A stretch of 64,000 bases of DNA from assembly GCA_964384105.1 (NCBI GenBank), contig CAYLJV010000002.1, positions 648-64,647 on the forward strand, in the 5' to 3' direction. The position numbers and the translations under genes are program-made. This document shows positions 3,767 to 56,321 of the stretch, one piece after another (position 1 is the stretch's first letter; each line of letters starts with the position of its first letter). The notes under the pieces are model-generated. The model saw only the letters and a list, made by a program, of their open reading frames with translations. It did no database searches and was not told the DNA's origin. The stretch comes from Candidatus Hadarchaeota archaeon (GTDB lineage: Archaea > Hadarchaeota > Hadarchaeia > Hadarchaeales > JAGGTB01).

Positions 3767-4762
3767 GTGAGATACCTGAAAGAATTACCTAAGCAGAAGA
3801 GCCTTATATATAAGGGAGATTGGGACTTCCTAATAATATTGGACGCCTGCCGCTACGATTATTTTAAGAACTTATACAAATCGTATCTGCCCGATGGAAG
3901 TTTAACCAAAGTAGAATCGGAGGGATCCAATACTGCCCAATGGTTGATAAAAACTTTCGATAAACCGATGAGAGACACCATCTATATCTCTTCCACCCCA
4001 TGGGTAAACTCCAAAGTGCCTGTGGAACACGAAAAAATGGGGGAAATAGTAGATGTAAGAAATAGTTTTTCAAAAATTATAGATGTCTGGGATTTCGGCT
4101 GGGAAAACGGAGTAGTTTGGCCGAAAACCATGGTAGAAACTGCAAGAGTAGTTGAAGAAAAAAACTCAAACAAAAATAAAAGGAAGATAATCCATTATAA
4201 GCAGCCGCATTGTCCCTATCTTGAGGAGCTTGAAACCTATCACGGAGAAAAATATCTATCTCACCTCACTAATCTTATCGAATTACCCAACGGATTATTC
4301 AATAAGAAAAATAATGAAAAGGGGAAAAAATCAAGAAACAAGGTTGGAAAAGGAGTGGCGAGGGGAAGAATAGGCAAATTTTTAAAAAACACCTTTGGAA
4401 TGGAATTCTTCACAGAACTCAAAGAGTTTTTAAGATTACCGTCCAGAACTACCGGAGAGGTCATGAAAAGAAAAGGAGTAAAAGGCTTACGAAGGCTTTA
4501 TAATGAAAACCTTAGAAGAGTTCTTCGATCAGTAGCCGAGCTTAAGGAAATATTGGATGGAAAATTAGTGATCACTGCAGACCATGGTGAATTTTTAGGA
4601 GACGTATTTTATGAGGATCTAACGTCCAGACAAAGAAGGCAACTTAATGGCTTTAGAGGTAAGAATAATCAAAATTCGGACAAAAATGTAAAAGGTCCAC
4701 TTTCAGGCCATTCAATCGTAGAACATCCCATACTAAGAGAAGTTCCGTGGTGTATCGCTTAA
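3767..4762 (+). CDS. Alkaline-phosphatase-superfamily protein, subtype A (sulfatase / phosphoethanolamine-transferase-like core), with Lys/Arg-rich insertions
   Basis: 'ILDACRYDYF', 'SEGSNTAQWL' and 'ITADHGEFLG...HPILREVPW' motifs are shared with 4910..5728 and 12325..13176. The ADHGE.LGE motif resembles the sulfatase / EptA-type C-terminal metal site. No signal peptide. Confidence 0.5.
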   Translation: MRYLKELPKQKSLIYKGDWDFLIILDACRYDYFKNLYKSYLPDGSLTKVESEGSNTAQWLIKTFDKPMRDTIYISSTPWVNSKVPVEHEKMGEIVDVRNSFSKIIDVWDFGWENGVVWPKTMVETARVVEEKNSNKNKRKIIHYKQPHCPYLEELETYHGEKYLSHLTNLIELPNGLFNKKNNEKGKKSRNKVGKGVARGRIGKFLKNTFGMEFFTELKEFLRLPSRTTGEVMKRKGVKGLRRLYNENLRRVLRSVAELKEILDGKLVITADHGEFLGDVFYEDLTSRQRRQLNGFRGKNNQNSDKNVKGPLSGHSIVEHPILREVPWCIA

Positions 4763-4909: not shown

Positions 4910-5728
4910 ATGAGATCTCAGAAAAATCTTATATACAGAGAAGATTGGAGTTGTCTAATAATTTTGGATGCTTGCCGATACGACTACTTTGAAAACCTTT
5001 ATGAGGATTATCTCCCACGGGGAAGACTTAAAAAAGTTCTTTCCGAGGGAAGCTCTACGGCTGAATGGCTTAGAAAAACATTTAATGACAATAATCTTGA
5101 GGACGTCATATATGTTTCCGCAAACGCTTTTATCAACTCTCAAGGCGCCAACATAGCCGGTTTCGACGGCAGAAAGCATTTTTTTAACGTGATAGACGTG
5201 TGGGATAAATATTGGAACAACGATCTAAAGACGATCCTGCCTGAAAAAGTCAGGAAAACAACCCTTCTTACCAAGGCAAAATTTCCCGATAAAAGAATTA
5301 TCACCCATTTCATGCAGCCACACTATCCTTATCTTTCGATTGGACCTGTTGAAGGAGGGTTAGGGGCTCCTAAAGCCGCCAAACAAAAGGGACTATTAAT
5401 AAAGACCCGGAGGAAAATAGGAAGATTCATAAGAAGAACAGCAGGTTTAGGAGTTTACAAGAAAATAAAAGAATATATCGTTGGCACACGAGAGGCAGGA
5501 AAATTGGAAAAAATAGTACAAGAATATGGAGAATATGAACTGAAACAGGCTTACATGAAAAATTTGATTAGGGTTCTTAAAGAAGCTAGAAAAATCTTGG
5601 AAAGATATCCCGGGAAAGTAGTTATTACCGCAGATCACGGTGAACTACTGGGGGAAGACGGATACGGACATCCTACAGACTCAAATCACCACATTTTGCG
5701 GGAGGTTCCTTGGTGGGGACCTGATTGA
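4910..5728 (+). CDS. Alkaline-phosphatase-superfamily protein, subtype A, tandem paralogue of 3767..4762
   Basis: 'IILDACRYDYFENLY', 'SEGSSTAEWL', 'VITADHGELLGEDGYGHP...HHILREVPWW'. Confidence 0.5.
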   Translation: MRSQKNLIYREDWSCLIILDACRYDYFENLYEDYLPRGRLKKVLSEGSSTAEWLRKTFNDNNLEDVIYVSANAFINSQGANIAGFDGRKHFFNVIDVWDKYWNNDLKTILPEKVRKTTLLTKAKFPDKRIITHFMQPHYPYLSIGPVEGGLGAPKAAKQKGLLIKTRRKIGRFIRRTAGLGVYKKIKEYIVGTREAGKLEKIVQEYGEYELKQAYMKNLIRVLKEARKILERYPGKVVITADHGELLGEDGYGHPTDSNHHILREVPWWGPD

Positions 5729-12324: not shown

Positions 12325-13176
12325 ATGAAATCCCAGAAAAAACTAATTCAAAATAGAGAATGGGATGTATTGATACTGCTAGATGCATGTCGATATGATA
12401 TCTTCAAAAAATGCTTTAAAAGGCATATTGAAGGCACTTTGAAGAAAGTGATTTCTGAGGGGTCCTGTACGCTTGATTGGCTTAAAGGAACTTTTAAGGA
12501 GAGCCATTTTAACGACGTTGTATATGTATCTGGAAATCCTTATATCAATTCTAAAGGAATCAGTATTCATGGATTCGATGGAACTAATCATTTTTATAAA
12601 ATTATTGACGCGTGGGAAAGTGGATGGATAGACGAGATAAAAACTGTTAAACCAGATGTAATGGGAAAAAAGACCCGACTTGCTAGGGCTAAGTACCCTG
12701 GTAAAAAAATAATCTCCCATTTCGCACAACCTCATTATCCATATCTATCGGAAAAGCTTGTCTATATGGGAGGCTTTACCGACGCTTTTTACAAAGCAAC
12801 AAATGAAAGAAATAGAATCGGGCTATTTTCACAAAAAATTAGAGAAATAATCGGGAGGATAATGAACAGAGTTTTAGGTTGGAGACTTACCCAAATGATA
12901 AGAAAAAAACTAAGCTTGATTGAATTAATTGGTGATCCTAGATTAAAAAAGTTCGCCCAAAAATATGGAACGACTTATCTTAAAAATGCATATGAGGAAA
13001 ATCTCATACTAGCTCTTACTGAAGTTCAAAATATTATTGATCGACTTCCCGACAATAAAATCGTAATAACATCTGATCACGGAGAATTACTGGGAGAAGA
13101 TGGAATCTATGGTCACCCAGAAGGACTGAATCATAACATACTGATTGAGGTTCCCTGGTTGGAAATAAATCACTGA
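12325..13176 (+). CDS. Alkaline-phosphatase-superfamily protein, subtype A
   Basis: 'LILLDACRYDIF', 'SEGSCTLDWL', 'VITSDHGELLGEDGIYGHPEGLNHNILIEVPW'. Confidence 0.5.
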   Translation: MKSQKKLIQNREWDVLILLDACRYDIFKKCFKRHIEGTLKKVISEGSCTLDWLKGTFKESHFNDVVYVSGNPYINSKGISIHGFDGTNHFYKIIDAWESGWIDEIKTVKPDVMGKKTRLARAKYPGKKIISHFAQPHYPYLSEKLVYMGGFTDAFYKATNERNRIGLFSQKIREIIGRIMNRVLGWRLTQMIRKKLSLIELIGDPRLKKFAQKYGTTYLKNAYEENLILALTEVQNIIDRLPDNKIVITSDHGELLGEDGIYGHPEGLNHNILIEVPWLEINH

Positions 13177-19098: not shown

Positions 19099-19383
19099 AT
19101 GTATGAACATACACAGATACACATAGATAGGATGGGTTCAAAGAACATAAGTCTGAAAAAATCCGCTTACGAACGTCTAGCCTCTCTGAAAAAAGAAGAC
19201 GAAAGCTTCAGCGACGTCGTAGAAAGACTCACTAGAGACCAAGCGCCAAAGTACTCGGACCTAGCGGGAACACTCTCAAAAGACACGATCGAAGCCATTG
19301 AAAATACCAGGAAAGAGAGAAAAAAGCTGGATAAAGCCGGATTTAAAATAATAGCGAGAAAATTCGAGGAAGAGAAAAGATGA
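19099..19383 (+). CDS. Putative antitoxin (VapB-like, RHH-type family with an ESFSDVV motif)
   Basis: 'ISLKKSAYERLASLKKEDESFSDVVERL'. 4-nt overlap with the downstream PIN gene. Confidence 0.5.
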   Translation: MYEHTQIHIDRMGSKNISLKKSAYERLASLKKEDESFSDVVERLTRDQAPKYSDLAGTLSKDTIEAIENTRKERKKLDKAGFKIIARKFEEEKR

Positions 19384-19775
19384 TAGCGGATACGGGATAC
19401 CTCATAGACGTTCTGAAGGAGGAAGAAAGGGCGATCGAAAAGAGCTCCGAACTCGCGGAAGAGACCCGCACCCAAAACCTCTGTACACCTGTAATATACG
19501 AGATAATGACAGGAATAGAGTACACAAGGTCAAAAAAAGAGCGTGTAAAATTTGAGTCCATGGTGGGAAGATTCACGGTTCTCCCCTACGATGAGAAATC
19601 GGCCTGTCTATCGGGCGAGATACATGCTGAGCTGCTCAGAGAGGGTCAAAAGCGCGGAACCGTCGATATCCAGATCGCGAGCATAGCCCTTTCCAACGAC
19701 GAAACAATCCTGACGAACGACTCTGATTACGAGATAATCTCGGAGATATTTGGTCTAAAAACAGAAGGGTACTGA
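19380..19775 (+). CDS. PIN-domain ribonuclease (VapC-like toxin)
   Basis: N-terminal 'IADTGYLIDVL' with acidic residues spaced as in PIN domains, and a C-terminal 'TNDSD' motif. Confidence 0.6.
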   Translation: MIADTGYLIDVLKEEERAIEKSSELAEETRTQNLCTPVIYEIMTGIEYTRSKKERVKFESMVGRFTVLPYDEKSACLSGEIHAELLREGQKRGTVDIQIASIALSNDETILTNDSDYEIISEIFGLKTEGY

Positions 19776-19875
19776 ACGCCTCCACACACGAATTATCCGG
19801 CCGGAAGTTGTTTACCACTAAAATTCCAATTAATGAATTGAAGACGGTGATACACTGGATTTCAAAAAGGGAAAA

Positions 19876-20448
19876 TTGAAAATCAACAGAGAGCTCTCCA
19901 AACTAGATAAAATGGCTCTAGACTTTATTCAAAATCTGAAAAAGATGAACGTTAAGTACGTGATAGTAAGCGGATATGTAGCAATTCTCACAGGCAGATC
20001 TAGAAGCACGGAGGACATCGACGTGATCATCGAAAAATTGAGTAGAAACAAAACCGAAGGGCTCGTAGAAAACCTCCAAAATGCCGGATACTGGTGCATA
20101 AACGCCGAGACTTCAGGAGTCTACGAGATGCTAAATGAAGGACTCACCCCCAGGTTTGCAGAAAAGGGAAAAGCCATCCCCAATTTCGAGTTGAGTTTTC
20201 CTAGAGACGAGATCGAAAAGACCGCCCTAAGGAAAAGTCTCAAAGCGGAGATTGGTACAAGCATCATCAAAGTAAGTCCTTTGGAACTTCAAATCGCCTA
20301 CAAGCTATATCTAGGATCAGAAAAAGACTGGGAGGACGCTCTACACCTCTACAGTCTCTTTGAAGATAGGCTTGACAGAGAGGAGCTGGAGTATTATTCG
20401 AGGGAATTAAGGGTTAGAGGTGATTTAGATAAACTTAGAAAAGCTTGA
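19876..20448 (+). CDS. Nucleotidyltransferase-fold protein (minimal NTase / AbiEii-like)
   Basis: 'SGYVAILTGRSRSTEDIDVII' fits the hG[GS]x(9-13)DhD NTase motif. Confidence 0.4.
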   Translation: MKINRELSKLDKMALDFIQNLKKMNVKYVIVSGYVAILTGRSRSTEDIDVIIEKLSRNKTEGLVENLQNAGYWCINAETSGVYEMLNEGLTPRFAEKGKAIPNFELSFPRDEIEKTALRKSLKAEIGTSIIKVSPLELQIAYKLYLGSEKDWEDALHLYSLFEDRLDREELEYYSRELRVRGDLDKLRKA

Positions 20449-20758
20449 GGAAAAGCGAAAAAAGAACAAAAAGCAGAGAATAGAATTCATAAAATTCTGG
20501 GCGGACTACATCAAGAAACACAACGACGAGACGTGGTCGAAACAACAAAACATTCTAATCGACTCCCAGATCCCAGATAAAAAAGACAGCGAAAGCAGTC
20601 GATAGAGAAATTGTTAAAAACATCGAAGGATTGTCAAAGAACCCACGAGCGCAAAATCCGATATGGAAAGCTCCAAAACGCATTTGGGTGGGATAATATG
20701 TTACCTATGATCGGGAAAGTCTTTTCTTCTATTAAAGATCCTTCGATGGAATAATTAA

Positions 20759-21136
20759 TTGATGAAACCCAGCGAAGATCCACTACCTGATTCACCCGAA
20801 AAGAAATCCAAGAAGGAATCTTTATTAGTAGATAGTAGAAAGTGGAAAGTAGAGGGAGAACCGATGCGCTCAGTAAAAATAAAGGAACCCCAAGCGGACA
20901 TGGTCAAGGACCTAAAGAGATATCTCAAGGAGAAGGAAGACCTCAGCACGACCGAGGCCGAGATACTGAGCCGATCAGTCGACATAGCCGTGAGAAAACA
21001 CTACGATGAACTGGTCGAGGAACTCAAGTCCTCCGAAAAAAAGGAGAAGAAAGGAGTAATAGACTACATTCTCGAAAATCCCAAAGCGGGAGAGAAAACT
21101 GACGCGGCAGAGGACCACAGCGTGGTGGAACCTTGA
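20759..21136 (+). CDS. Hypothetical protein, possible antitoxin partner of the downstream PIN protein
   Basis: ATGA overlap with 21133..21534. Charged and helical composition. The true start may be the internal Met (MRSVKI). Confidence 0.3.
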   Translation: MMKPSEDPLPDSPEKKSKKESLLVDSRKWKVEGEPMRSVKIKEPQADMVKDLKRYLKEKEDLSTTEAEILSRSVDIAVRKHYDELVEELKSSEKKEKKGVIDYILENPKAGEKTDAAEDHSVVEP

Positions 21137-21534
21137 TCTTCGTGGACTCATCCGTCTGGGACGCCAGCTTGAATGAGAGAGACGAAAATCACGACTTGAG
21201 CAGGACCATCCTCAAGGAAGTGAAGAACGGCGAGTACGGAAAGATCATAGTTACCGACTACGTCATCGACGAAGTCCTGACATGGATCAACAGGAAAGTG
21301 GACCACGATACAGCCGTTGAAATCTCAGAGGAGTTCTTCGAAGACCCGACAATAGAAACAGTCAAGGTAAACTGGGCGGTAATCCACAGAGCGAGGGAGC
21401 TCTTTTCCGAAAGGGACTACCTTTCCTTCACCGATGCGACAACGGCCGTAGTCATGAACACCAGAGACATCCAAAGAATCGCGACTTTCGACTCCGACTT
21501 CAGTAAAGTCGGCTTCGAAGTAATCAGCGGGTAA
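21133..21534 (+). CDS. PIN-domain protein (VapC-like)
   Basis: 'MIFVDSSVW..', 'VTDYVIDEV', 'FTDATTAVVM', 'IATFDSDF' acidic quartet. Confidence 0.6.
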   Translation: MIFVDSSVWDASLNERDENHDLSRTILKEVKNGEYGKIIVTDYVIDEVLTWINRKVDHDTAVEISEEFFEDPTIETVKVNWAVIHRARELFSERDYLSFTDATTAVVMNTRDIQRIATFDSDFSKVGFEVISG

Positions 21535-21674
21535 TGCTGGAAACACAAACTAAATTCTCTCAAAATTTGAAAACACGATTTATTTCGATGTTAAAACATA
21601 ATGGACGATGACTTATTTAGTGGGAAAATCAAAATTAATACCCAAAATTCTAAATATGTGGGATTTTAGACAAT

Positions 21675-21935
21675 ATGTGGGACAAAATGCCGGTGGTTTC
21701 CGTCGACGACAGAGGAAGGATCACCCTCCCGAAAGAAACGAAAATTCGGGGAGGAAAGGCCGTGATAATTTCGGCAGGTTCATTTTTCAACATCATTCCC
21801 ATCCCCGAGGACCCGGAAAAATACGCGGAGGGATGGTTGGATTCCAAGAAAAGCAGAAAAGAACTGAAAGAGCTCGCAGAGAAAAAGGCTAAGGAGGACG
21901 CAAAGAGCAGATCGAAACGGAGAGATCAGCTTTGA
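21675..21935 (+). CDS. AbrB/SpoVT/MazE-type antitoxin (VapB-like)
   Basis: 'MPVVSVDDRGRITLPKETKI' swapped-hairpin motif. 4-nt overlap with the downstream PIN gene. Confidence 0.6.
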   Translation: MWDKMPVVSVDDRGRITLPKETKIRGGKAVIISAGSFFNIIPIPEDPEKYAEGWLDSKKSRKELKELAEKKAKEDAKSRSKRRDQL

Positions 21936-22351
21936 TGATAGAAACGGACGTTCTCTACGCTTATGTTAAGAAAAAGGACTGGCTGAAACCGACCGCAGTA
22001 AAACTGATTAGAGGTACGGCAAATGGTGAGTACGGAGAAGTTCTGGCTTCGAGAGAGTGTCTCCACGAGTTATATTACGTTTCAATGGAGGAAGGAGTCG
22101 ACCTAGATGAAGTTATTTCCAGGTTCGGAGCTTTAACTGCAATTGACAACCTTTCCTTTCCCGAAACGACTCCAGAACTCGACTTGGTCGCACTGACGCT
22201 AATGAAACAGTACAACTTTTCTTCGATTTTCGATGCACACCATGCAGCGGCGGCACTGGAACAGGACGAGGAGAGAACAATTATCTCTACGGACGACGTC
22301 TACGACAGAGTTCCCGGCCTGAAAAGAAAAGATCCTAGAGACTTGGTTTAA
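21932..22351 (+). CDS. PIN-domain protein (VapC-like)
   Basis: 'MMIETDVLYAYV...' with 'DAHHAAAAL' and a C-terminal 'STDD' motif. Confidence 0.5.
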   Translation: MMIETDVLYAYVKKKDWLKPTAVKLIRGTANGEYGEVLASRECLHELYYVSMEEGVDLDEVISRFGALTAIDNLSFPETTPELDLVALTLMKQYNFSSIFDAHHAAAALEQDEERTIISTDDVYDRVPGLKRKDPRDLV

Positions 22352-22880
22352 AAAATTCGTCAACGGCTATTTTCAAATCGGACTTCATCCTGTCCGTAAT
22401 TTCCGGGAATCTCTTCGGGACCAACCCTCCAAAAACGAGTTTTTCAGCTTCTGAAACTTCCTCAAACCCCAAAATATCGATTACGAAAAGTATACCAAAA
22501 AATAGGTTCTTTGACGGATAGTGAGACTTGAAATGTTGATGGGCCGAAAAATCATCTGTGAAGAAAGGAAGATCAAGCTCAAAAGAAAGGTGTAAAACCT
22601 GAACATCACAATCAGTTATCCCTCCCGATCCCAGACCGAGAGTTCTCTTCTCCTCTTCAAGAGCATTATCAGAAAGGGGGTCTTTTTCAACTGTAACCCT
22701 CTCGAGGGCCTCCGTGGCCCTTTTTCCTAAATAATCACCATGTTTTGAAAAATCCAATAATTCCTTTTTTACACACTCAGAAACTACTATTTCCCAATCT
22801 TTGAGTTCTTCTCCGCTCAAATCGAGAGCCGAAAAGAGAGTTAACACGGCTGAGGTATCTAAGACCGCTCTTCTCTCCAT
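22335..22880 (-). CDS. PIN-like domain protein with a C-terminal extension
   Basis: 'AVLDTSAVL' N-terminal motif and 'TDCDVQVL', 'FFTDD' motifs. Confidence 0.4.
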   Translation of the reverse strand: MERRAVLDTSAVLTLFSALDLSGEELKDWEIVVSECVKKELLDFSKHGDYLGKRATEALERVTVEKDPLSDNALEEEKRTLGLGSGGITDCDVQVLHLSFELDLPFFTDDFSAHQHFKSHYPSKNLFFGILFVIDILGFEEVSEAEKLVFGGLVPKRFPEITDRMKSDLKIAVDEFFKPSL

Positions 22881-23170
22881 GCCTTGTACTTCCTCGTAGT
22901 GGTCACTATATTCGATATCTGATGAGCCCTTTCGGGACCCAAAGTTTTCACAAGTTCCCCATAATCAATCAGGCCTAGAGAGTAAAATCTGGAGAGAATC
23001 CTTTCCTCGATGTAATAGCCCGGATTGTCTTCTATATTTTCTAGAACAAAGTTTACATCATCCAACAGCATGTTAACAAAGGTGCTTCTAGGAACACCTA
23101 TCCGATCCAGCACCTCATCTATCTTCTCAACCTTATCCTCATCCAAAGACATCTGTACCTTTTTCTTCAT
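22859..23170 (-). CDS. Ribbon-helix-helix (CopG-like) protein, probable antitoxin partner of 22335..22880
   Basis: 'KVQMSLDEDKVEKIDEVLDRIGVPRSTFVNMLL' RHH pattern. Overlaps the downstream gene. Confidence 0.4.
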   Translation of the reverse strand: MKKKVQMSLDEDKVEKIDEVLDRIGVPRSTFVNMLLDDVNFVLENIEDNPGYYIEERILSRFYSLGLIDYGELVKTLGPERAHQISNIVTTTRKYKAWREERS

Positions 23171-51760: not shown

Positions 51761-52312
51761 CTAGTAATACCCTGGATGGTCTCTTTTTAGGAGTCGATCT
51801 AACTCTCTAGAAAGTTCTCTCCTGAGTTCCTCTTGTCTCTCGGATATATAGCTCAAGGGACTCTTAGAAGAATAGGGACCAATCGCCATCAAACTCGGTG
51901 AGTCTGCAGAACCGAAAGGTACCGGTTCTTTTTCCATAGCTTCTCCAACTATCTTCTTCCTAAATTCGAGAAGATCTTTTTTGAACTCATCCTTTGAATC
52001 GTAATCTTCCATTCTTGGAATGTTATTAAGAAAATCCTCCGTCTCTTCCTTACTAAACTTTCTAAATCCAAAATCAGGGAGATTTTTAACTAACTGATCT
52101 TCCTCAACCTCCAACCTTGCACCGATCCCTACCGGGTTAGGAGTATAAATAGAATCTATCTTAAGGAAAAATGCCTCGTCACCCTGGATTATATACGCTT
52201 CGTAGAAACTGTCTTTTTCAGGCGGGGAAAGCCAAAAGCTCCATCCCTTCGGATCCTTCTGATAGCTCTTATAAAATTCCTTCATTACCTCTTTTGCTCT
52301 CTTCTTTTTCAT
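51761..52312 (-). CDS. Hypothetical protein
   Basis: ORF only. Confidence 0.3.
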   Translation of the reverse strand: MKKKRAKEVMKEFYKSYQKDPKGWSFWLSPPEKDSFYEAYIIQGDEAFFLKIDSIYTPNPVGIGARLEVEEDQLVKNLPDFGFRKFSKEETEDFLNNIPRMEDYDSKDEFKKDLLEFRKKIVGEAMEKEPVPFGSADSPSLMAIGPYSSKSPLSYISERQEELRRELSRELDRLLKRDHPGYY

Positions 52313-52496: not shown

Positions 52497-52712
52497 GTGG
52501 AACAATTGGGCAAAAAAAGTATTTCAATATCTGAGAAACTATACAAAAAGATCAAAGACAGAGTCGAAGGAACAGGATTTGAGTCTGTAGAAGAATACGT
52601 AGATTACGTTCTGAGAGAAATTGTTACTGAAGACGAAGAAGAAGAAGAATTTTCTGAAGAAGACGAAGAAAAAGTCAGAGAAAGGCTCCGAGCACTCGGT
52701 TATATGGACTAA
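52497..52712 (+). CDS. Small RHH (CopG-like) protein with an acidic linker and a C-terminal RLRALGYMD tail
   Basis: 'ISISEKLYKKIKDRVEGTGFESVEEYVDYVLREI' RHH pattern. An alternative TTG start at 52506 is preceded by AGGTGG. Confidence 0.45.
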   Translation: MEQLGKKSISISEKLYKKIKDRVEGTGFESVEEYVDYVLREIVTEDEEEEEFSEEDEEKVRERLRALGYMD

Positions 52713-52836
52713 AAAAGTGAAATCGCCAGACCTAAATCAACTTCCTACTTCTATTTTACAGCAAAACTAATTATCATCTCCTGTTTTCATGTGAACAAGT
52801 TCTTAAGCAAAGTTTTTAATTACAAGTAATTAGATG

Positions 52837-52854
52837 TTAATTATAGATAATTAA
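52837..52854. promoter_or_regulatory. AT-rich palindrome TTAATTAT-AG-ATAATTAA immediately upstream of the second RHH gene
   Basis: 8-bp inverted arms 11-28 nt upstream of the ATG at 52865. Confidence 0.3.
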
Positions 52855-52864
52855 AGGTAGAAAA

Positions 52865-53092
52865 ATGGGAAAGAAAAAATCCAAGAAAACCAAATTCACC
52901 ACAGTCTCTATTCCGGTCCCTCTGTTCGAAAAGGCCAAAAAACAGATTGAAGGAACCGGCTTCACTTCAGTCTCAAGCTATGTAGGCTATATACTTCGCG
53001 AAGTAATCGCCAAAAGTAAAGAAAAACCATTCACCGAAGAAAGTGAAAAAGAAATCAGAGAAAAATTGAAAGCACTTGGTTATCTGGAGTGA
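52865..53092 (+). CDS. Small RHH (CopG-like) protein with a C-terminal KLKALGYLE tail, translationally coupled to cysD
   Basis: 'VSIPVPLFEKAKKQIEGTGFTSVSSYVGYILREVI'. Paralogue of 52497..52712. The stop overlaps the cysD GTG start. Confidence 0.45.
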   Translation: MGKKKSKKTKFTTVSIPVPLFEKAKKQIEGTGFTSVSSYVGYILREVIAKSKEKPFTEESEKEIREKLKALGYLE

Positions 53093-53913
53093 TAAACGTG
53101 AAAGAAGAGAAAAGATTAAATCATCTTGACGAACTAGAAAGTGAATCGGTCTTCATCATCAGAGAGGCCTACAAAAAATATGACAACCTGGGAATGCTTT
53201 GGTCGGCCGGAAAAGACTCTACAACGCTTGCTTACCTCGCAAAGAAGGCATTTTTAGGAAAAGTACCAATTCCTGCTATCTATATAGACACAGGATATCA
53301 CTTCCAAGAAATGTACGATTTTAGAGATAAACTAGCGGAAAAATGGGGCTTGAATTTGATAAATGCAAAAAATGAAGAAGCTGATGAGGAGGGAATCACA
53401 CCTGAAGACAAGCTGGATTGCTGCGGAAAAAGAAAAACAAAGGCCTTAAAGGACATAATAGCAAAACACGGATTCGATGCGCTATTAGTTGGAATAAGAA
53501 GAGATGAGCACGGCGTTCGGGCGAAAGAACGTACCTTCAGTCCACGAGACCGAGATTTCCAGTGGAATTACAAAGATCAACCTCCCGAATTATGGGACCA
53601 GTACAAATCAGAGAAGGAATCAGGACAGCACCTCAGAGTTCACCCACTACTTTCATGGACAGAGCTCGACGTATGGAAATATATACAGAGAGAAGACCTA
53701 CCGGTCAATCCACTCTATTTCGCCAAGAATGGTAAAAGATTCAGATCTCTAGGATGTAAACCTTGCACCGACCCCGTAGAAAGCGAAGTGAAAAGCGTTG
53801 AAGGTATGATAAAAGAGGTTAAAGAAAGCGAGATCGGTGAGAGAAGTGGGAGAGCTCAGGATAAAGAGGAGGCCCATGCTATGCAAAAGCTACGAAGTTT
53901 AGGCTACATGTGA
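53089..53913 (+). CDS. cysD: Sulfate adenylyltransferase subunit 2 (PAPS-reductase-family PP-loop protein)
   Basis: 'WSAGKDSTTLAYLAKKAF' PP-loop, 'IDTGYHFQEMYDFRD', 'RRDEHGVRAKERTFSPRDRDFQWNYKDQPPELW'. As recalled, these align closely with E. coli CysD, including the C-terminal ..LGYM tail. Confidence 0.8.
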   Translation: MINVKEEKRLNHLDELESESVFIIREAYKKYDNLGMLWSAGKDSTTLAYLAKKAFLGKVPIPAIYIDTGYHFQEMYDFRDKLAEKWGLNLINAKNEEADEEGITPEDKLDCCGKRKTKALKDIIAKHGFDALLVGIRRDEHGVRAKERTFSPRDRDFQWNYKDQPPELWDQYKSEKESGQHLRVHPLLSWTELDVWKYIQREDLPVNPLYFAKNGKRFRSLGCKPCTDPVESEVKSVEGMIKEVKESEIGERSGRAQDKEEAHAMQKLRSLGYM

Positions 53914-53935
53914 GTTCAATGAAAGTGATGTAAAG

Positions 53936-55162
53936 ATGGAAGATGAAGTTTTAAGATTTGTATTGGTTGGTCATGTAGACCATGGGAAAAGTACTCTCAT
54001 AGGTAGGCTCTTCTACGATACAGACTCTCTACCCGCAGGCAAATATGAGGAGATAAAGACGGCCTGTGAGGCAATGGGGAGAGATTTCGAATTTGGATAC
54101 GTGATGGACCACTTGGAAGAAGAGAGAACCCAAGGCGTAACAATTGATACTGCTCAAACTTTCTTCGATACTGACAAGAGAAGCTATAACATAATAGATG
54201 CCCCCGGCCACGTGGAGTTTGTCAAAAACATGATAACAGGCGCCAGTCAGGCGGAAGCGGCTATCCTCATAGACGATGTTTCCGAAGGCGTTCAAGAACA
54301 AACGAGAAGACACGCCTATATTCTAAGCATGTTGGGGCTAGAACAAGTAATCGTCGTCCTGAATAAAATGGACCTAGTAGGTTATGATCGAGAAAAATTC
54401 GAAGATGTCAAGAAAAAATTACTTCATTTCCTGAACTCAATTGGAATCGAACCAACTTACGTAATTCCCATCTCTGCAAAAGAAGGAGACTTCGTAGCCA
54501 AAAGAATAGAAAATTTGGGCTGGTACGATGGGCCAACAGTTCTCGAAGCTCTCGACACCTTCAAGAAAAAGCCATCACCAACAGAAAAACCACTCAGACT
54601 ACCCGTTCAGGACGTCTATAAGTTCAATGATACTCGTGCCGCTGTTGGAAAAGTAGAAAGTGGGATAATAAGAGAAGGAGACGAGATATTGGTAATGCCC
54701 GGAAATAGGAAAACAACCGTAAAAAAACTCGTCGAATACAACCGGGAACCCACAGAAGCCATAGCTGGAAAAAGTATAGGTATCTCCACTTCGGATAAAC
54801 TATTCCTAGATCGAGGAAATGTGATCTCCGATCCAGAGAACCCCCCCAGGATAACTGACACCATCAAAGGTCACATATTTTGGATGGATGAAAAACCCTA
54901 CGAGAATGGCGAAAGAATAAAATTCAAATGCTCAACACAAGAGGTCATGAGCGAGTTAGAAATAGAAGAAGTGCTAGACTCTTCGACCCTCGAAGTCGTT
55001 AGTGAAAACGGAGGCAATAGAATAGAAAACCGGCAAATAGCAAATGTTATCATTAAGACCTCAAAGGCCGTGGTAATTGAGAACTTTAATAATATTCAAG
55101 GCCTTGGAAGGTTCGTTCTCGAAAGAAAAGACACCTGCGCAGGCGGGATAATAACCGAGTAG
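53936..55162 (+). CDS. cysN: Sulfate adenylyltransferase subunit 1 (GTPase, EF-Tu-like)
   Basis: 'VGHVDHGKSTLIGRL', 'DAPGH', 'NKMD' GTPase motifs with CysN-like context. Confidence 0.8.
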   Translation: MEDEVLRFVLVGHVDHGKSTLIGRLFYDTDSLPAGKYEEIKTACEAMGRDFEFGYVMDHLEEERTQGVTIDTAQTFFDTDKRSYNIIDAPGHVEFVKNMITGASQAEAAILIDDVSEGVQEQTRRHAYILSMLGLEQVIVVLNKMDLVGYDREKFEDVKKKLLHFLNSIGIEPTYVIPISAKEGDFVAKRIENLGWYDGPTVLEALDTFKKKPSPTEKPLRLPVQDVYKFNDTRAAVGKVESGIIREGDEILVMPGNRKTTVKKLVEYNREPTEAIAGKSIGISTSDKLFLDRGNVISDPENPPRITDTIKGHIFWMDEKPYENGERIKFKCSTQEVMSELEIEEVLDSSTLEVVSENGGNRIENRQIANVIIKTSKAVVIENFNNIQGLGRFVLERKDTCAGGIITE

Positions 55163-55172
55163 GTGCTTAGAA

Positions 55173-55901
55173 ATGACCGTAGTATTTGCCATAGACGCCC
55201 TTGAATACAAAAAAGTCGAAGATTTTGATTGTAAAAACTTAAAGCAAACGACTTATGGTAAAACCGATATCTCCGAGTTTGATCAGCCTAGAACGATGGT
55301 TCTTTGGAGTTCATTTATGACCGGCGAAAACAAAGAAGACGAGATCCTAGCGAAAGGAGATAAGGAGATGTGGAACACCAAATTTTCAATAGAGGATACC
55401 TTCTTCTCGAGTTTCGGAGATCCAAAAATAATAGATCTCCCTGGCTTTTCATACGATCGAGAACAGCATGAAAAAGAAAGAGAACTTCTGAAGAAATTTT
55501 TCGAAGAAACAAATGATAAAGATCAAAAGAAGGAGATAAGAAAAGAGTATAACCAACATGGACTAAAACACCATAGAAAAATAAAAGAAGAATTTCTAGA
55601 GTCCCTAGAGGCCGACCATGACTTCTTGCTCGGATATTTCTCGGCCGCGGATGTCGTAGGCCATCTAAATTTTGGAAACAATACTCTCATGAAAATGATA
55701 TACGAAGACCTCGACGATATCGCATTAGAAATAAAGAAAATAAGAGATGACCACATACTTGTTCTCTCGGATCATGGAATGAAAGGAGTAGGTATGTTTG
55801 GAGACCACAGTGATTATGGTTTTTGGTCATTTAATAGCAAATGTGAATTAGAAACCCCAAAATTAACAGATTTTGCTGATTTTCTAAAAAAATTAGACTA
55901 A
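55173..55901 (+). CDS. Alkaline-phosphatase-superfamily protein, subtype B, last gene of the RHH-cysD-cysN operon
   Basis: 'VVFAIDALEY...VLWSSFMTGEN' and 'ILVLSDHGMKGVGMFGDHSD'. Paralogue of 986..1963. SD AGGTG lies 9 nt upstream, 10 nt after the cysN stop. Confidence 0.5.
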   Translation: MTVVFAIDALEYKKVEDFDCKNLKQTTYGKTDISEFDQPRTMVLWSSFMTGENKEDEILAKGDKEMWNTKFSIEDTFFSSFGDPKIIDLPGFSYDREQHEKERELLKKFFEETNDKDQKKEIRKEYNQHGLKHHRKIKEEFLESLEADHDFLLGYFSAADVVGHLNFGNNTLMKMIYEDLDDIALEIKKIRDDHILVLSDHGMKGVGMFGDHSDYGFWSFNSKCELETPKLTDFADFLKKLD

Positions 55902-55916
55902 AATTGTAGATAATAC

Positions 55917-56321
55917 TTAAAGAGACCTCACTTTTCTCTTAATCTTCTCAAAAGCATCTCCAGATTTTACCTCAGGGTTTATAGGATCCTCTATATCCCA
56001 ATTTTTTATTTTATCCGAGGAAATCTGAAAGTTATCCACCAGATATCTCATGTGATCCTCTTCCATAACTACCACAGAATCTACCCTTTCCAAAACTCTT
56101 TCCTTTATTGGCTCTGGTTCCTTTTTAGCATGCATCGAAGCATCTTCGTTCTCTAAAAGAGACATAGCACTGTCAGAGATTCTGCTCGCCGGGTGTGTAC
56201 CTGCCGAACTCACCCTTACTTTGGGCTTGTACTTTTTTGTCAAAGCCTCAGCCACAGGACTCCGGAAGCTATTCCCTGTACACACGTAAAGAACTCTAAT
56301 ACTCTCACCTCCTTTCAACAT
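55917..56321 (-). CDS. Low-molecular-weight protein tyrosine phosphatase
   Basis: 'VLYVCTGNSFRSPVAEAL' is the CX5R P-loop of LMW-PTP / ArsC-type enzymes. Confidence 0.7.
   Translation of the reverse strand: MLKGGESIRVLYVCTGNSFRSPVAEALTKKYKPKVRVSSAGTHPASRISDSAMSLLENEDASMHAKKEPEPIKERVLERVDSVVVMEEDHMRYLVDNFQISSDKIKNWDIEDPINPEVKSGDAFEKIKRKVRSL

Follow-up and report, generated by a model that had tools for sequence, protein, structure and literature searches.

MetJ, CopG and Arc are small ribbon-helix-helix (RHH) repressors; MetJ binds its operator cooperatively, tuned by a metabolite of its pathway, and both MetJ and CopG set several dimers on one face of the DNA. In proteobacteria sulfate assimilation has a dedicated transcription factor of the LysR type, CysB/Cbl, which responds to metabolites of the pathway. 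Here we describe a stretch of 64,000 nucleotides from a Candidatus Hadarchaeota archaeon (contig CAYLJV010000002.1, positions 648 to 64,647; hereafter the window, i.e. the whole stretch analysed), in which two small proteins, RHH1 and RHH2, are encoded ahead of the sulfate-activation genes cysD and cysN and share a C-terminal tail with CysD and with an unlinked protein of the alkaline phosphatase (AP) superfamily. RHH1 and RHH2 appear to be members of a widespread, so far unnamed family of DNA-binding RHH proteins of about 70 residues. The reading that we favour, at a probability of about one half, is that these proteins regulate sulfate-activation operons and that the tail is their interaction or regulatory module.

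It is useful to compare the general features of this family with those of the described systems. As in the MetJ, CopG and Arc repressors, the proteins are small, with a predicted beta-strand that is followed by two helices and a short stretch up to the C-terminus, the gene heads the operon that it would control, and the putative operator is made of 2-5 short tandem repeats on which dimers would sit side by side. On the other hand, the family matches the Pfam RHH models below threshold, its boxes are spaced by one full DNA turn as opposed to the 8 bp of met boxes, and none of the MetJ, CopG and Arc families has an invariant acidic-basic LGY tail or shares its C-terminus with the enzymes that it regulates. 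Mnt of phage P22 and AmrZ have the same succession of RHH domain, linker and C-terminal helix, and the helix of Mnt is a coiled-coil tetramerisation domain that lets two dimers occupy adjacent half-operators. With about 14 helical residues the tail described here is shorter; it is also conserved to a far greater degree than tetramerisation helices usually are, and it is found on enzymes too.

The type II antitoxins ParD, RelB and FitA resemble the family in that their gene directly precedes the next one and is coupled to it in translation. The C-terminal helix of ParD binds its partner, and the tethered helix of the RHH family could likewise fold on a partner. However, the downstream gene here encodes a metabolic enzyme (the homo-oligomeric ATP sulfurylase Sat, or CysD), the partner family varies while the tail is constant, and the loci contain no toxin-like gene. 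CysB/Cbl, finally, has an unrelated fold (a LysR helix-turn-helix domain plus a periplasmic-binding-protein-like effector domain), is about 320 residues long, and shares no peptide with the enzymes.

The shared tail and the RHH family

The two RHH proteins and their tails are positioned as follows.

52497 to 52712, + strand: RHH1, a 71-residue RHH protein with the canonical tail; the open reading frame (ORF) equals public gene call P0001
52659 to 52709, + strand: tail of RHH1, EDEEKVRERLRALGYMD, residues 55-71
52865 to 53092, + strand: RHH2, a 75-residue paralogue of RHH1; the operon begins with its gene, whose stop abuts or overlaps the start of cysD
53039 to 53089, + strand: tail of RHH2, ESEKEIREKLKALGYLE, residues 59-75

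A preliminary description, made from the DNA alone, had stated that four proteins of the window end in the same tail, and this is what we find: RHH1 ends in ...EEDEEKVRERLRALGYMD, RHH2 in ...ESEKEIREKLKALGYLE, CysD in ...AMQKLRSLGYM and the AP-like protein at 986-1963 in ...DEEEEIKKRLKDLGYFD. A six-frame scan of the window (1097 stop-to-stop segments of at least 30 residues each) gives four matches to [KR]L[KR]xLGY, every one at these C-termini, and exactly these four ORFs end in [KR]L[KR]xLGY[MLF](D/E). When 81 non-overlapping ORFs were shuffled 3000 times, the expectation was 0.007 for [KR]L[KR]xLGY anywhere and 0.006 for a C-terminal LGY[MLFIVW][DE]?, with at most one such ending as compared to the four observed. 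That the four tails match is a real observation, and chance falls far short of explaining it. Its carriers span unrelated folds, as had also been claimed, namely RHH, PP-loop ATPase and AP superfamily, and no further protein family with such an ending was found in about 1.6 Mb of fetched loci. Where the CysD tail and the other three have identical residues, only 0-1 of 6 third codon positions are identical. Because third codon positions differ where residues agree, the tails are not recent copies of each other, and recent DNA copying or gene conversion among them is ruled out. In form, the tail is a helix of roughly 17 residues with an acidic N-terminal half, a basic C-terminal half and an L-G-Y-hydrophobic cap; a single hydrophobic stripe runs along it (V/I, L, L, Y, M/L/I/F), and a Gly cap closes it.

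The tail is a constant feature of the RHH family. It is present in all 55 homologues of RHH1 that were detected, and a profile built from the tail only retrieves 1147 clusters, the best 120 of which are all CopG-like proteins (105 of 61-74 residues, 4 shorter fragments) from Thermoplasmatota, MSBL1, Aminicenantes, Acidobacteriota and others, with no Pfam domain on record for any of them. At least 319 loci with an RHH gene carrying the tail (RHH+tail) were confirmed in a one-genome-per-species collection, distributed over many archaeal phyla, Aminicenantes and Dehalococcoidia; the closest named relatives belong to candidate division MSBL1. Identity in the RHH domain is 41-65% across most of the family and reaches 78% for the closest member, and the consensus of the tail, F-[ST]-[KE]-E-D-E-E-K-V-K-E-R-L-[KR]-A-L-G-Y-[LMI]-D, hardly varies. 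In 76 RHH genes the amino-acid entropy of the tail is about 0-0.4 bits at most positions, as opposed to 0.9-2.0 bits at third codon positions. As the latter are saturated while the residues are nearly invariant, the constraint acts on the protein; the saturation of synonymous sites also rules out a regulatory DNA signal within the 3' end of the RHH gene.

RHH1 and RHH2 are 44% identical, and paired paralogues also occur at two other loci (L093 and L001). Separately, one Thermoplasmatota metagenome-assembled genome (JAZKSH01) holds two distinct RHH-Sat-DHH loci (L030, L031), i.e. the system can be duplicated within a genome. The AlphaFold2 (AF2) model of RHH1 has helices at residues 13-23, 31-48 and 54-67 and a mean predicted local distance difference test score (pLDDT) of 81.8, the tail helix 54-67 being confident; residues 7-11, the segment expected to be the strand from its alternating hydrophobic pattern (ISISI / VSIPV), do not form one in this monomer model. 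The top Foldseek matches of the model are RHH proteins (ParD, Reg576, NikR, Arc) and its best full-length look-alikes are ParD/PrpA antitoxins, none of them significant (E of at least 0.6 for the former); the hhalign alignment with CopG is in register, also without significance. The family scores below the cut-off of every RHH model in Pfam and NCBIfam. Pfam RHH_1 is found below threshold in 10 of 40 members (best E 0.0018), and the FitA-like, Arc, RelB-like and NikA-like models are likewise sub-threshold. The source annotations label family members as CopG or Arc/MetJ-type.

Gene context and a candidate operator

The context of RHH+tail genes was surveyed in 80 species genomes by scoring the directly downstream gene on the same strand. 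At 60 of the 80 loci this gene is Sat, at 7 it is CysD and at 4 a sulfotransferase; at 3 more an AP-like gene comes first and is followed by CysD or CysC, and at 1 TauE is followed by CysD. In all, about 75 of the 80 species genomes have the RHH+tail gene directly ahead of Sat, CysD or sulfation genes. The usual operon order is RHH-Sat-DHH-CysC-sulfotransferase-sulfate symporter, and in public gene calls the RHH gene is separated from the next one by 11-96 nt or overlaps it. In the window the stop of RHH2 overlaps or abuts the cysD start, and cysD probably takes its Shine-Dalgarno sequence from a GGAG within the final codons of RHH2. The RHH tail, F[ST]KEDEEKVKERLRALGY[LMI]D, is identical across Sat, CysD and sulfotransferase-only contexts. 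Clustering of the neighbourhoods (933 ORFs) revealed no universal nearby partner beyond known pathway genes; the recurrent extra neighbours (GATase_5, UbiA, thymidylate kinase, Usp and GlmS) are housekeeping genes that are syntenic within Thermoplasmatota. With Sat, CysD, AP-like or sulfotransferase genes downstream at about 75 of 80 loci and no toxin family among the recurrent neighbours, a type II antitoxin role is not supported.

It is very probable that the RHH proteins are dedicated regulators of sulfate-activation operons. Such operons encode Sat or CysD-CysN and, after it, a kinase of adenosine 5'-phosphosulfate (APS), a phosphoesterase of the DHH or AP-like kind, a sulfotransferase and a transporter of sulfate, and the regulators are probably autoregulatory. 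The preliminary description had proposed that transcription control and the AP-like enzymes are coupled to sulfate activation by mimicry of a CysN-docking element; gene context speaks for the coupling, while the mechanism fails for the RHH family, as discussed below. The literature searched contained no publication linking an RHH protein to sulfate-activation operons, one transcriptome study merely listing a CopG gene beside sat. In Palaeococcus pacificus the CopG gene PAP_09880 is numbered next to sat (PAP_09885), and both are reported to rise on elemental sulfur (PMC6981617). PAP_09880 of strain DY20341 is probably a member of the RHH family in a cultured, tractable member of the Thermococcales.

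A candidate operator is found directly upstream of RHH2.

52815 to 52857, no strand assigned: putative operator of four TAATTA boxes at 10-11 bp spacing (TAATTACAAG TAATTAGATGT TAATTATAGA TAATTAAAGG), found by repeat scan; it ends 8 nt before the RHH2 start

This is the single place in the window with a chain of three or more TAATTA boxes, and it lies ahead of RHH2-cysD-cysN-AP. In the family at large, TAATTA boxes recur every 10-11 bp within 100 nt upstream of RHH genes, between a TATA-like element and the ribosome-binding site. Chains of at least two boxes are present at 55 of 67 RHH loci as compared to 26 of 1260 control windows, and chains of at least three at 27 of 67 as compared to 1 of 1260; the same array of four boxes lies ahead of the RHH2 orthologue in L093. 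A repeated operator near the regulator's own promoter, as in other RHH proteins, is thus seen here as a genomic signature, i.e. as enrichment of the boxes and as one array in the window. RHH1 and RHH2 would most likely bind the four boxes as several side-by-side dimers, and from there they would control RHH2-cysD-cysN-AP. A scan of the operon for sigma-70 promoters and terminators was uninformative, as expected for an archaeon.

CysD and the small AP-like proteins

The enzymes that carry the tail, and the genes next to them, are the following.

53089 to 53913, + strand: cysD, sulfate adenylyltransferase subunit 2 of a short archaeal clade (PAPS_reduct, PRK05253 and 1zun_A matches)
53863 to 53910, + strand: tail of CysD, KEEAHAMQKLRSLGYM, residues 259-274
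53936 to 55162, + strand: cysN, the EF-1alpha-like GTPase subunit, without APS-kinase domain (profile and 1zun_B matches)
55173 to 55901, + strand: small AP-superfamily protein of the Phosphodiest type, last gene of the operon, without tail (Pfam Phosphodiest 26.4 bits, cut-off 23)
986 to 1963, - strand: unlinked small AP-like paralogue with tail, in a glycan-synthesis cluster (Pfam Phosphodiest 21.8 bits, cut-off 23, sub-threshold)
989 to 1039, - strand: tail of this AP-like protein, DEEEEIKKRLKDLGYFD, residues 309-325, with an acidic linker to the catalytic core

The public gene call P0321 starts cysD at GTG 53098 (271 residues) instead of 53089, which leaves the tail unaffected. CysD matches Pfam PAPS_reduct (2.1e-45), NCBIfam PRK05253 (344.5 bits, cut-off 195) and 1zun_A (1.4e-67), and it falls below the cut-offs of stricter equivalog models (277.6 vs 413; 264.2 vs 396.6), consistent with a divergent short clade. 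CysN matches Pfam GTP_EFTU (3.7e-49), TIGR02034 (340.6 bits, cut-off 336.1) and 1zun_B (1.1e-75). The window protein has the PP-loop domain, a CysD profile match above cut-off, CysN alongside and a C-terminal GY[FM], and it is a clear orthologue of CysD of the bacterial CysDN complex (E. coli; Pseudomonas syringae, 1ZUN), with which it shares the adjacent CysN and the terminal ...[KR]xxGY[FM]. It differs from bacterial CysD in that the proteins of its clade lack about 30 residues of the bacterial length, end in a more extended helical tail, MQKLR[AS]LGYM, and have a small AP-like partner instead of APS kinase.

E. coli CysD does end as the preliminary description had stated, in ...GSMELKKRQGYF, and the view that the tail is ancestral to CysD is borne out more widely. 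The window tail aligns with P. syringae CysD over ...GSMEEKKRQGY, bacterial-type archaeal CysD proteins end in ...AMEDRKKEGYF, and a terminal GYM or GYF is found in 109 of the closest 120 CysD clusters (P0321-P0440), in 108 cases as part of ...LR[AST]LGYM. About ten cluster representatives continue past ...LGYM with mostly hydrophobic residues (e.g. ...LGYMAIF...), which may point to a fusion with, or read-through into, the neighbouring gene for a TauE-like permease. Very short CysD proteins encoded beside a small AP-like gene without cysN end in EIMERLR[AS]LGYW or KIKERLKALGYW. Up to 8 consecutive residues are common to CysD and RHH tails, e.g. ERLRALGY in L078 and KIKERLKALGYW in L102. The GY plus aromatic or Met end is therefore ancestral to CysD, and it was extended to RLRALGY in the short archaeal clade.

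In 54 homologues M265, L268, R269, L271, G272, Y273 and M274 of CysD are invariant. In the AF2 monomer model, made with these homologues, residues 251-274 have a pLDDT below 50, with a helix at 262-270, and the tail is not packed on its own core; a tail that is invariant but unpacked in a model is what would be expected of a conditionally ordered contact element. In 1zun_A, the sole CysDN crystal structure found, 204 of 325 residues are modelled, a number that the N-terminal core accounts for. Neither 1ZUN nor the literature searched offers an account of the role of the CysD C-terminal tail.

The two AP-like proteins of the window are 31% identical; the PF01663 gathering score is passed by 55173-55901 and narrowly missed by 986-1963. 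Residues D16, T58, D199, H203, D239, H240 and H251 are invariant or nearly so in 35 family members and, by analogy, would be the metal ligands and the nucleophile of the AP superfamily. The full HMMER search detected 506 relatives of 986-1963 at E<=1e-3, and an exact look-up of this 325-residue protein gave no identical public record. The tail, in the form [DE]xx[IV]xxxLxxLGY[FILMV], is found at the end of 39 of the 150 best representatives (about 26%), after the core end ...PKITDFYxxI and a linker of 8 to more than 40 residues that is acidic or basic. It is an optional, modular add-on that has been gained and lost in this family.

Small AP-like genes adjoin CysD in many metagenome loci, and those beside cysD (in the order CysD-AP-CysN or AP-CysD) are without tail. 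Tail-bearing members lie in glycan clusters (the window protein 986-1963, L117 2596-3483, L120 103-1008, L123 1615-2556 and L137 2-703), with GT1/GT2/GT4, methyltransferase, DegT aminotransferase and flippase genes as neighbours; the comparison rests on a small sample, 5 tail-bearing versus about 30 tail-less proteins. In the window the neighbours of 986-1963 are GT4 glycosyltransferases and a flippase. The same cluster contains three paralogous ORFs (3767-4762, 4910-5728 and 12325-13176) that share an N-terminal 'W..LI(I/L)LDACRYD' and a '...H.IL.EVPW' end and have no Pfam match.

The operon RHH-cysD-cysN-small AP-like (52865-55901) lacks APS kinase, and neither CysC nor Sat is found anywhere in the 64 kb. 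The short archaeal CysD and a small AP-like protein of the NPP type are a recurrent pair (L001, L063, L075, L093 and several of L103-L138) that also occurs without cysN, as AP-CysD (L061, L078, L092, L098, L099, L102). The small AP-like enzyme may be a consumer of APS.

Some further features of the window should be mentioned. A 183-residue hypothetical protein (51761-52312, - strand), divergent from RHH1 and without Pfam or NCBIfam match, ends in ...ELDRLLKRDHPGYY, a loose echo of the tail (a helix, then G-Y-Y). A gene resembling low-molecular-weight phosphotyrosine phosphatases or ArsC (55917-56321, - strand; LMWPc 1.7e-18) converges on the end of the operon and is also present in the short contig L016. 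At 19099-23170, pairs of small ORFs (94+131, 125+133, 94+139 and 103+181 residues) resemble several toxin-antitoxin cassettes.

Possible roles of the tail

The tail is likely to be an interaction or regulatory helix and not a passive end. We regard it as a tethered interaction helix because it is amphipathic and Gly-capped, because its linker is flexible, and because one family has both acquired it and lost it. As no common partner is encoded nearby, and as Sat and CysDN are unrelated, the target of the RHH tail should be another tail or the RHH body, a common molecule, or DNA. In the mechanism that we favour, the helix, held by a flexible acidic linker to the RHH domain, would find another such helix, or a hydrophobic groove, to pair with. 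It would serve in the first place to link RHH dimers bound side by side on operator boxes that are one turn apart, in the manner of the C-terminal helix of Mnt, and in CysD-type organisms the same helix on CysD and on unlinked AP-like proteins could let these enzymes engage the regulator, or one another. This specific idea of helix pairing or cooperativity is a tentative proposal. It is unlikely, though worth stating, that the tail is a portable docking helix which wires the pathway to its own repressor, such that regulator, CysD and remote AP-like proteins pair or compete for one site. The abundance or state of the enzymes would then titrate the repressor off the multi-box operator, similarly to the conditional cooperativity of toxin-antitoxin systems, and unlinked AP-like enzymes would be recruited to the APS source in an operon type that lacks APS kinase.

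Several observations weigh against regulators with an interaction tail. Firstly, the RHH assignment lies below curated sequence thresholds and is based on secondary structure, weak fold matches and source annotations. Secondly, a few RHH+tail genes precede unrelated genes (ARMT1-like in L014 and L073, a sugar-nucleotide cluster in L008). Thirdly, no TAATTA array is found in the bacterial members and in part of the archaeal ones (L010, L091, L094, L001, L005), therefore the operator part of the model is clade-specific; its absence would be expected had the DNA-reading strand diverged. As for the tail, neighbourhood clustering gave no partner for it, and the structure models are monomeric only, hence no contact is seen. 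Moreover, a plain oligomerisation helix would not be expected to hold nearly all of its residues, exposed charges among them, constant from Aminicenantes to Thermoplasmatota, and conservation of this degree is more in keeping with a target that does not change, such as a metabolite.

Metabolite sensing is therefore a serious rival, even if we find it doubtful, and it is not exclusive of helix pairing. A site for APS, 3'-phosphoadenosine 5'-phosphosulfate (PAPS), 3'-phosphoadenosine 5'-phosphate or sulfate would be formed by the tail, either by itself or jointly with the RHH core or another tail, the RHH protein would be a product-responsive repressor, as MetJ is with S-adenosylmethionine, and the CysD tail would be a related lid that contacts nucleotide or sulfate. 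The tail stays extremely constant from phylum to phylum even where the DNA-binding domain and the operator differ, and it is the same in Sat, CysDN and sulfotransferase-only contexts, whose sole common factor is metabolites. The conserved Lys/Arg and the invariant Tyr could bind phosphosulfate and adenine, and residues 251-274 of CysD, invariant yet disordered in the model, are presumably, by homology with PAPS/APS reductases, a mobile C-terminal active-site segment. However, a helix of 17 residues whose net charge is negative would by itself make a poor site for a nucleotide, Sat, DHH and the sulfotransferases have no tail and yet bind these metabolites, and the AP-like tail is optional and sits on long disordered linkers, unlike an active-site element.

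Unrelated proteins might also have converged on a generic capped helix, a shared structural solution that implies neither partner nor function: any terminal helix that stands free would tend to acquire an acidic start, a basic end, a Gly C-cap and a hydrophobic staple. The pattern h-x-x-L-x-x-L-G-[YF] does end helix 1 of unrelated domains (the RAD23 UBA domain, EKEAIERLKALGF, and noise matches to PG_binding_2 and the TamA POTRA domain), the native terminal helix of APS kinases closes with ...LKExGY[ILV] and the large AP proteins have ...LKKLGKI at their end, and there is no DNA-level sign of copying between the families. In the surveyed loci L017-L096, CysC proteins often end in EESVxKVxxxLKExGY[ILV](D/E), several Phosphodiest proteins of about 500 residues end in ...LKKLGKI, and E. 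coli CysC ends in ...LLRQNDIIRS. Convergence is possible for such weaker look-alikes but fails to explain the runs of 8-11 identical or nearly identical residues between CysD and RHH tails. Considering also that four tails were observed in one window where 0.006 were expected, all within one pathway neighbourhood or family, that no other family in the fetched loci ends alike, and that the residue-by-residue invariance of the RHH tail far exceeds the needs of helix stability, we regard convergence as improbable for the tail proper.

The preliminary description had suggested CysN, or a partner of the CysDN complex, as the common target: the CysD tail would dock there, and RHH and AP-like proteins would compete for the same site or be recruited to it. 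There are reasons to take this idea seriously, since GY[FMW] is universal at the CysD C-terminus and disordered in the monomer model, RHH2, cysD and cysN are translationally coupled in the window and its relatives, archaeal CysD tails converge on the RHH sequence RLRALGY, and the AP-like proteins that bear the tail are those not co-encoded with cysD. The CysN-CysD contact sits where EF-Tu contacts aminoacyl-tRNA (PMC5770160). For the RHH family, however, the proposal is contradicted by gene context. RHH+tail genes head Sat operons at three quarters of the loci, CysN is downstream at just 7 of 80, and the tail is no different with or without it; because the tail is unchanged in Sat operons, which lack CysDN, CysN is not the partner of the RHH tail, and we reject this class for the family. 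In addition, short CysD proteins without adjacent cysN keep the tail (the six loci L061, L078, L092, L098, L099 and L102), and a contact of the CysD tail with CysN is not seen in 1ZUN, where the C-terminal third of CysD is apparently not modelled. Taken over all tail carriers, docking to CysN is quite improbable.

The idea of a covalent or turnover signal, i.e. modification of the invariant Tyr (sulfation, adenylylation or phosphorylation) or a shared C-terminal degron, could draw on the acidic residues that flank the Tyr, on the sulfotransferases encoded in many RHH operons and on the phosphotyrosine-phosphatase-like gene that abuts the window operon, but it is wholly speculative and barely credible, as there is no sulfotransferase in the window or in the CysD-AP-CysN operon type and the distance of the Tyr from the C-terminus varies (GYM vs GYMD), contrary to a carboxylate-anchored degron or HbYX motif.

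Known motif classes were considered as well. We reject an HbYX motif, the Tyr being penultimate in CysD alone (GYM) and third from the end in the RHH and AP tails, always with Gly before it. A PDZ/TPR-type C-terminal ligand and a membrane-targeting helix are rejected given the variable Tyr distance, the Gly before the Tyr and the net negative charge. The tail also resembles helix 1 of UBA domains with its 'MGF/LGF' loop (E-x-x-[IV]-x-x-L-x-x-L-G-[FY]), the RAD23 UBA domain being the closest look-alike in the PDB (E of at least 0.12), and the MIM1 motif of ESCRT-III is (D/E)xxLxxRLxxL(K/R). However, the tail proteins stop right after the loop, 1-2 residues after G-Y, so that no UBA fold is possible, the best PDB profile matches (E 0.12-1.9) cover one helix, no MIT or ubiquitin-like partner is indicated, and both classes are rejected. 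One tail fragment, P0119, is labelled CdvB/ESCRT-III by the Joint Genome Institute; the likeness to UBA and MIM1 is a resemblance only.

The regulation of sulfate activation and PAPS synthesis is essentially undescribed in archaea, and the regulator family and operator uncovered here have apparently not been described before. The work defines a family of several hundred to more than 1000 members, a diagnostic signature of 18 residues and a candidate operator. It is unusual that the most conserved element of a regulator is common to an enzyme that it controls and to optional copies on a second enzyme family. The unit of CysD and a small AP-like protein, with or without CysN and lacking APS kinase, may be an unrecognised route of APS use. 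If the tails do interact, they would provide a simple, transferable coupling of enzyme level to transcription.

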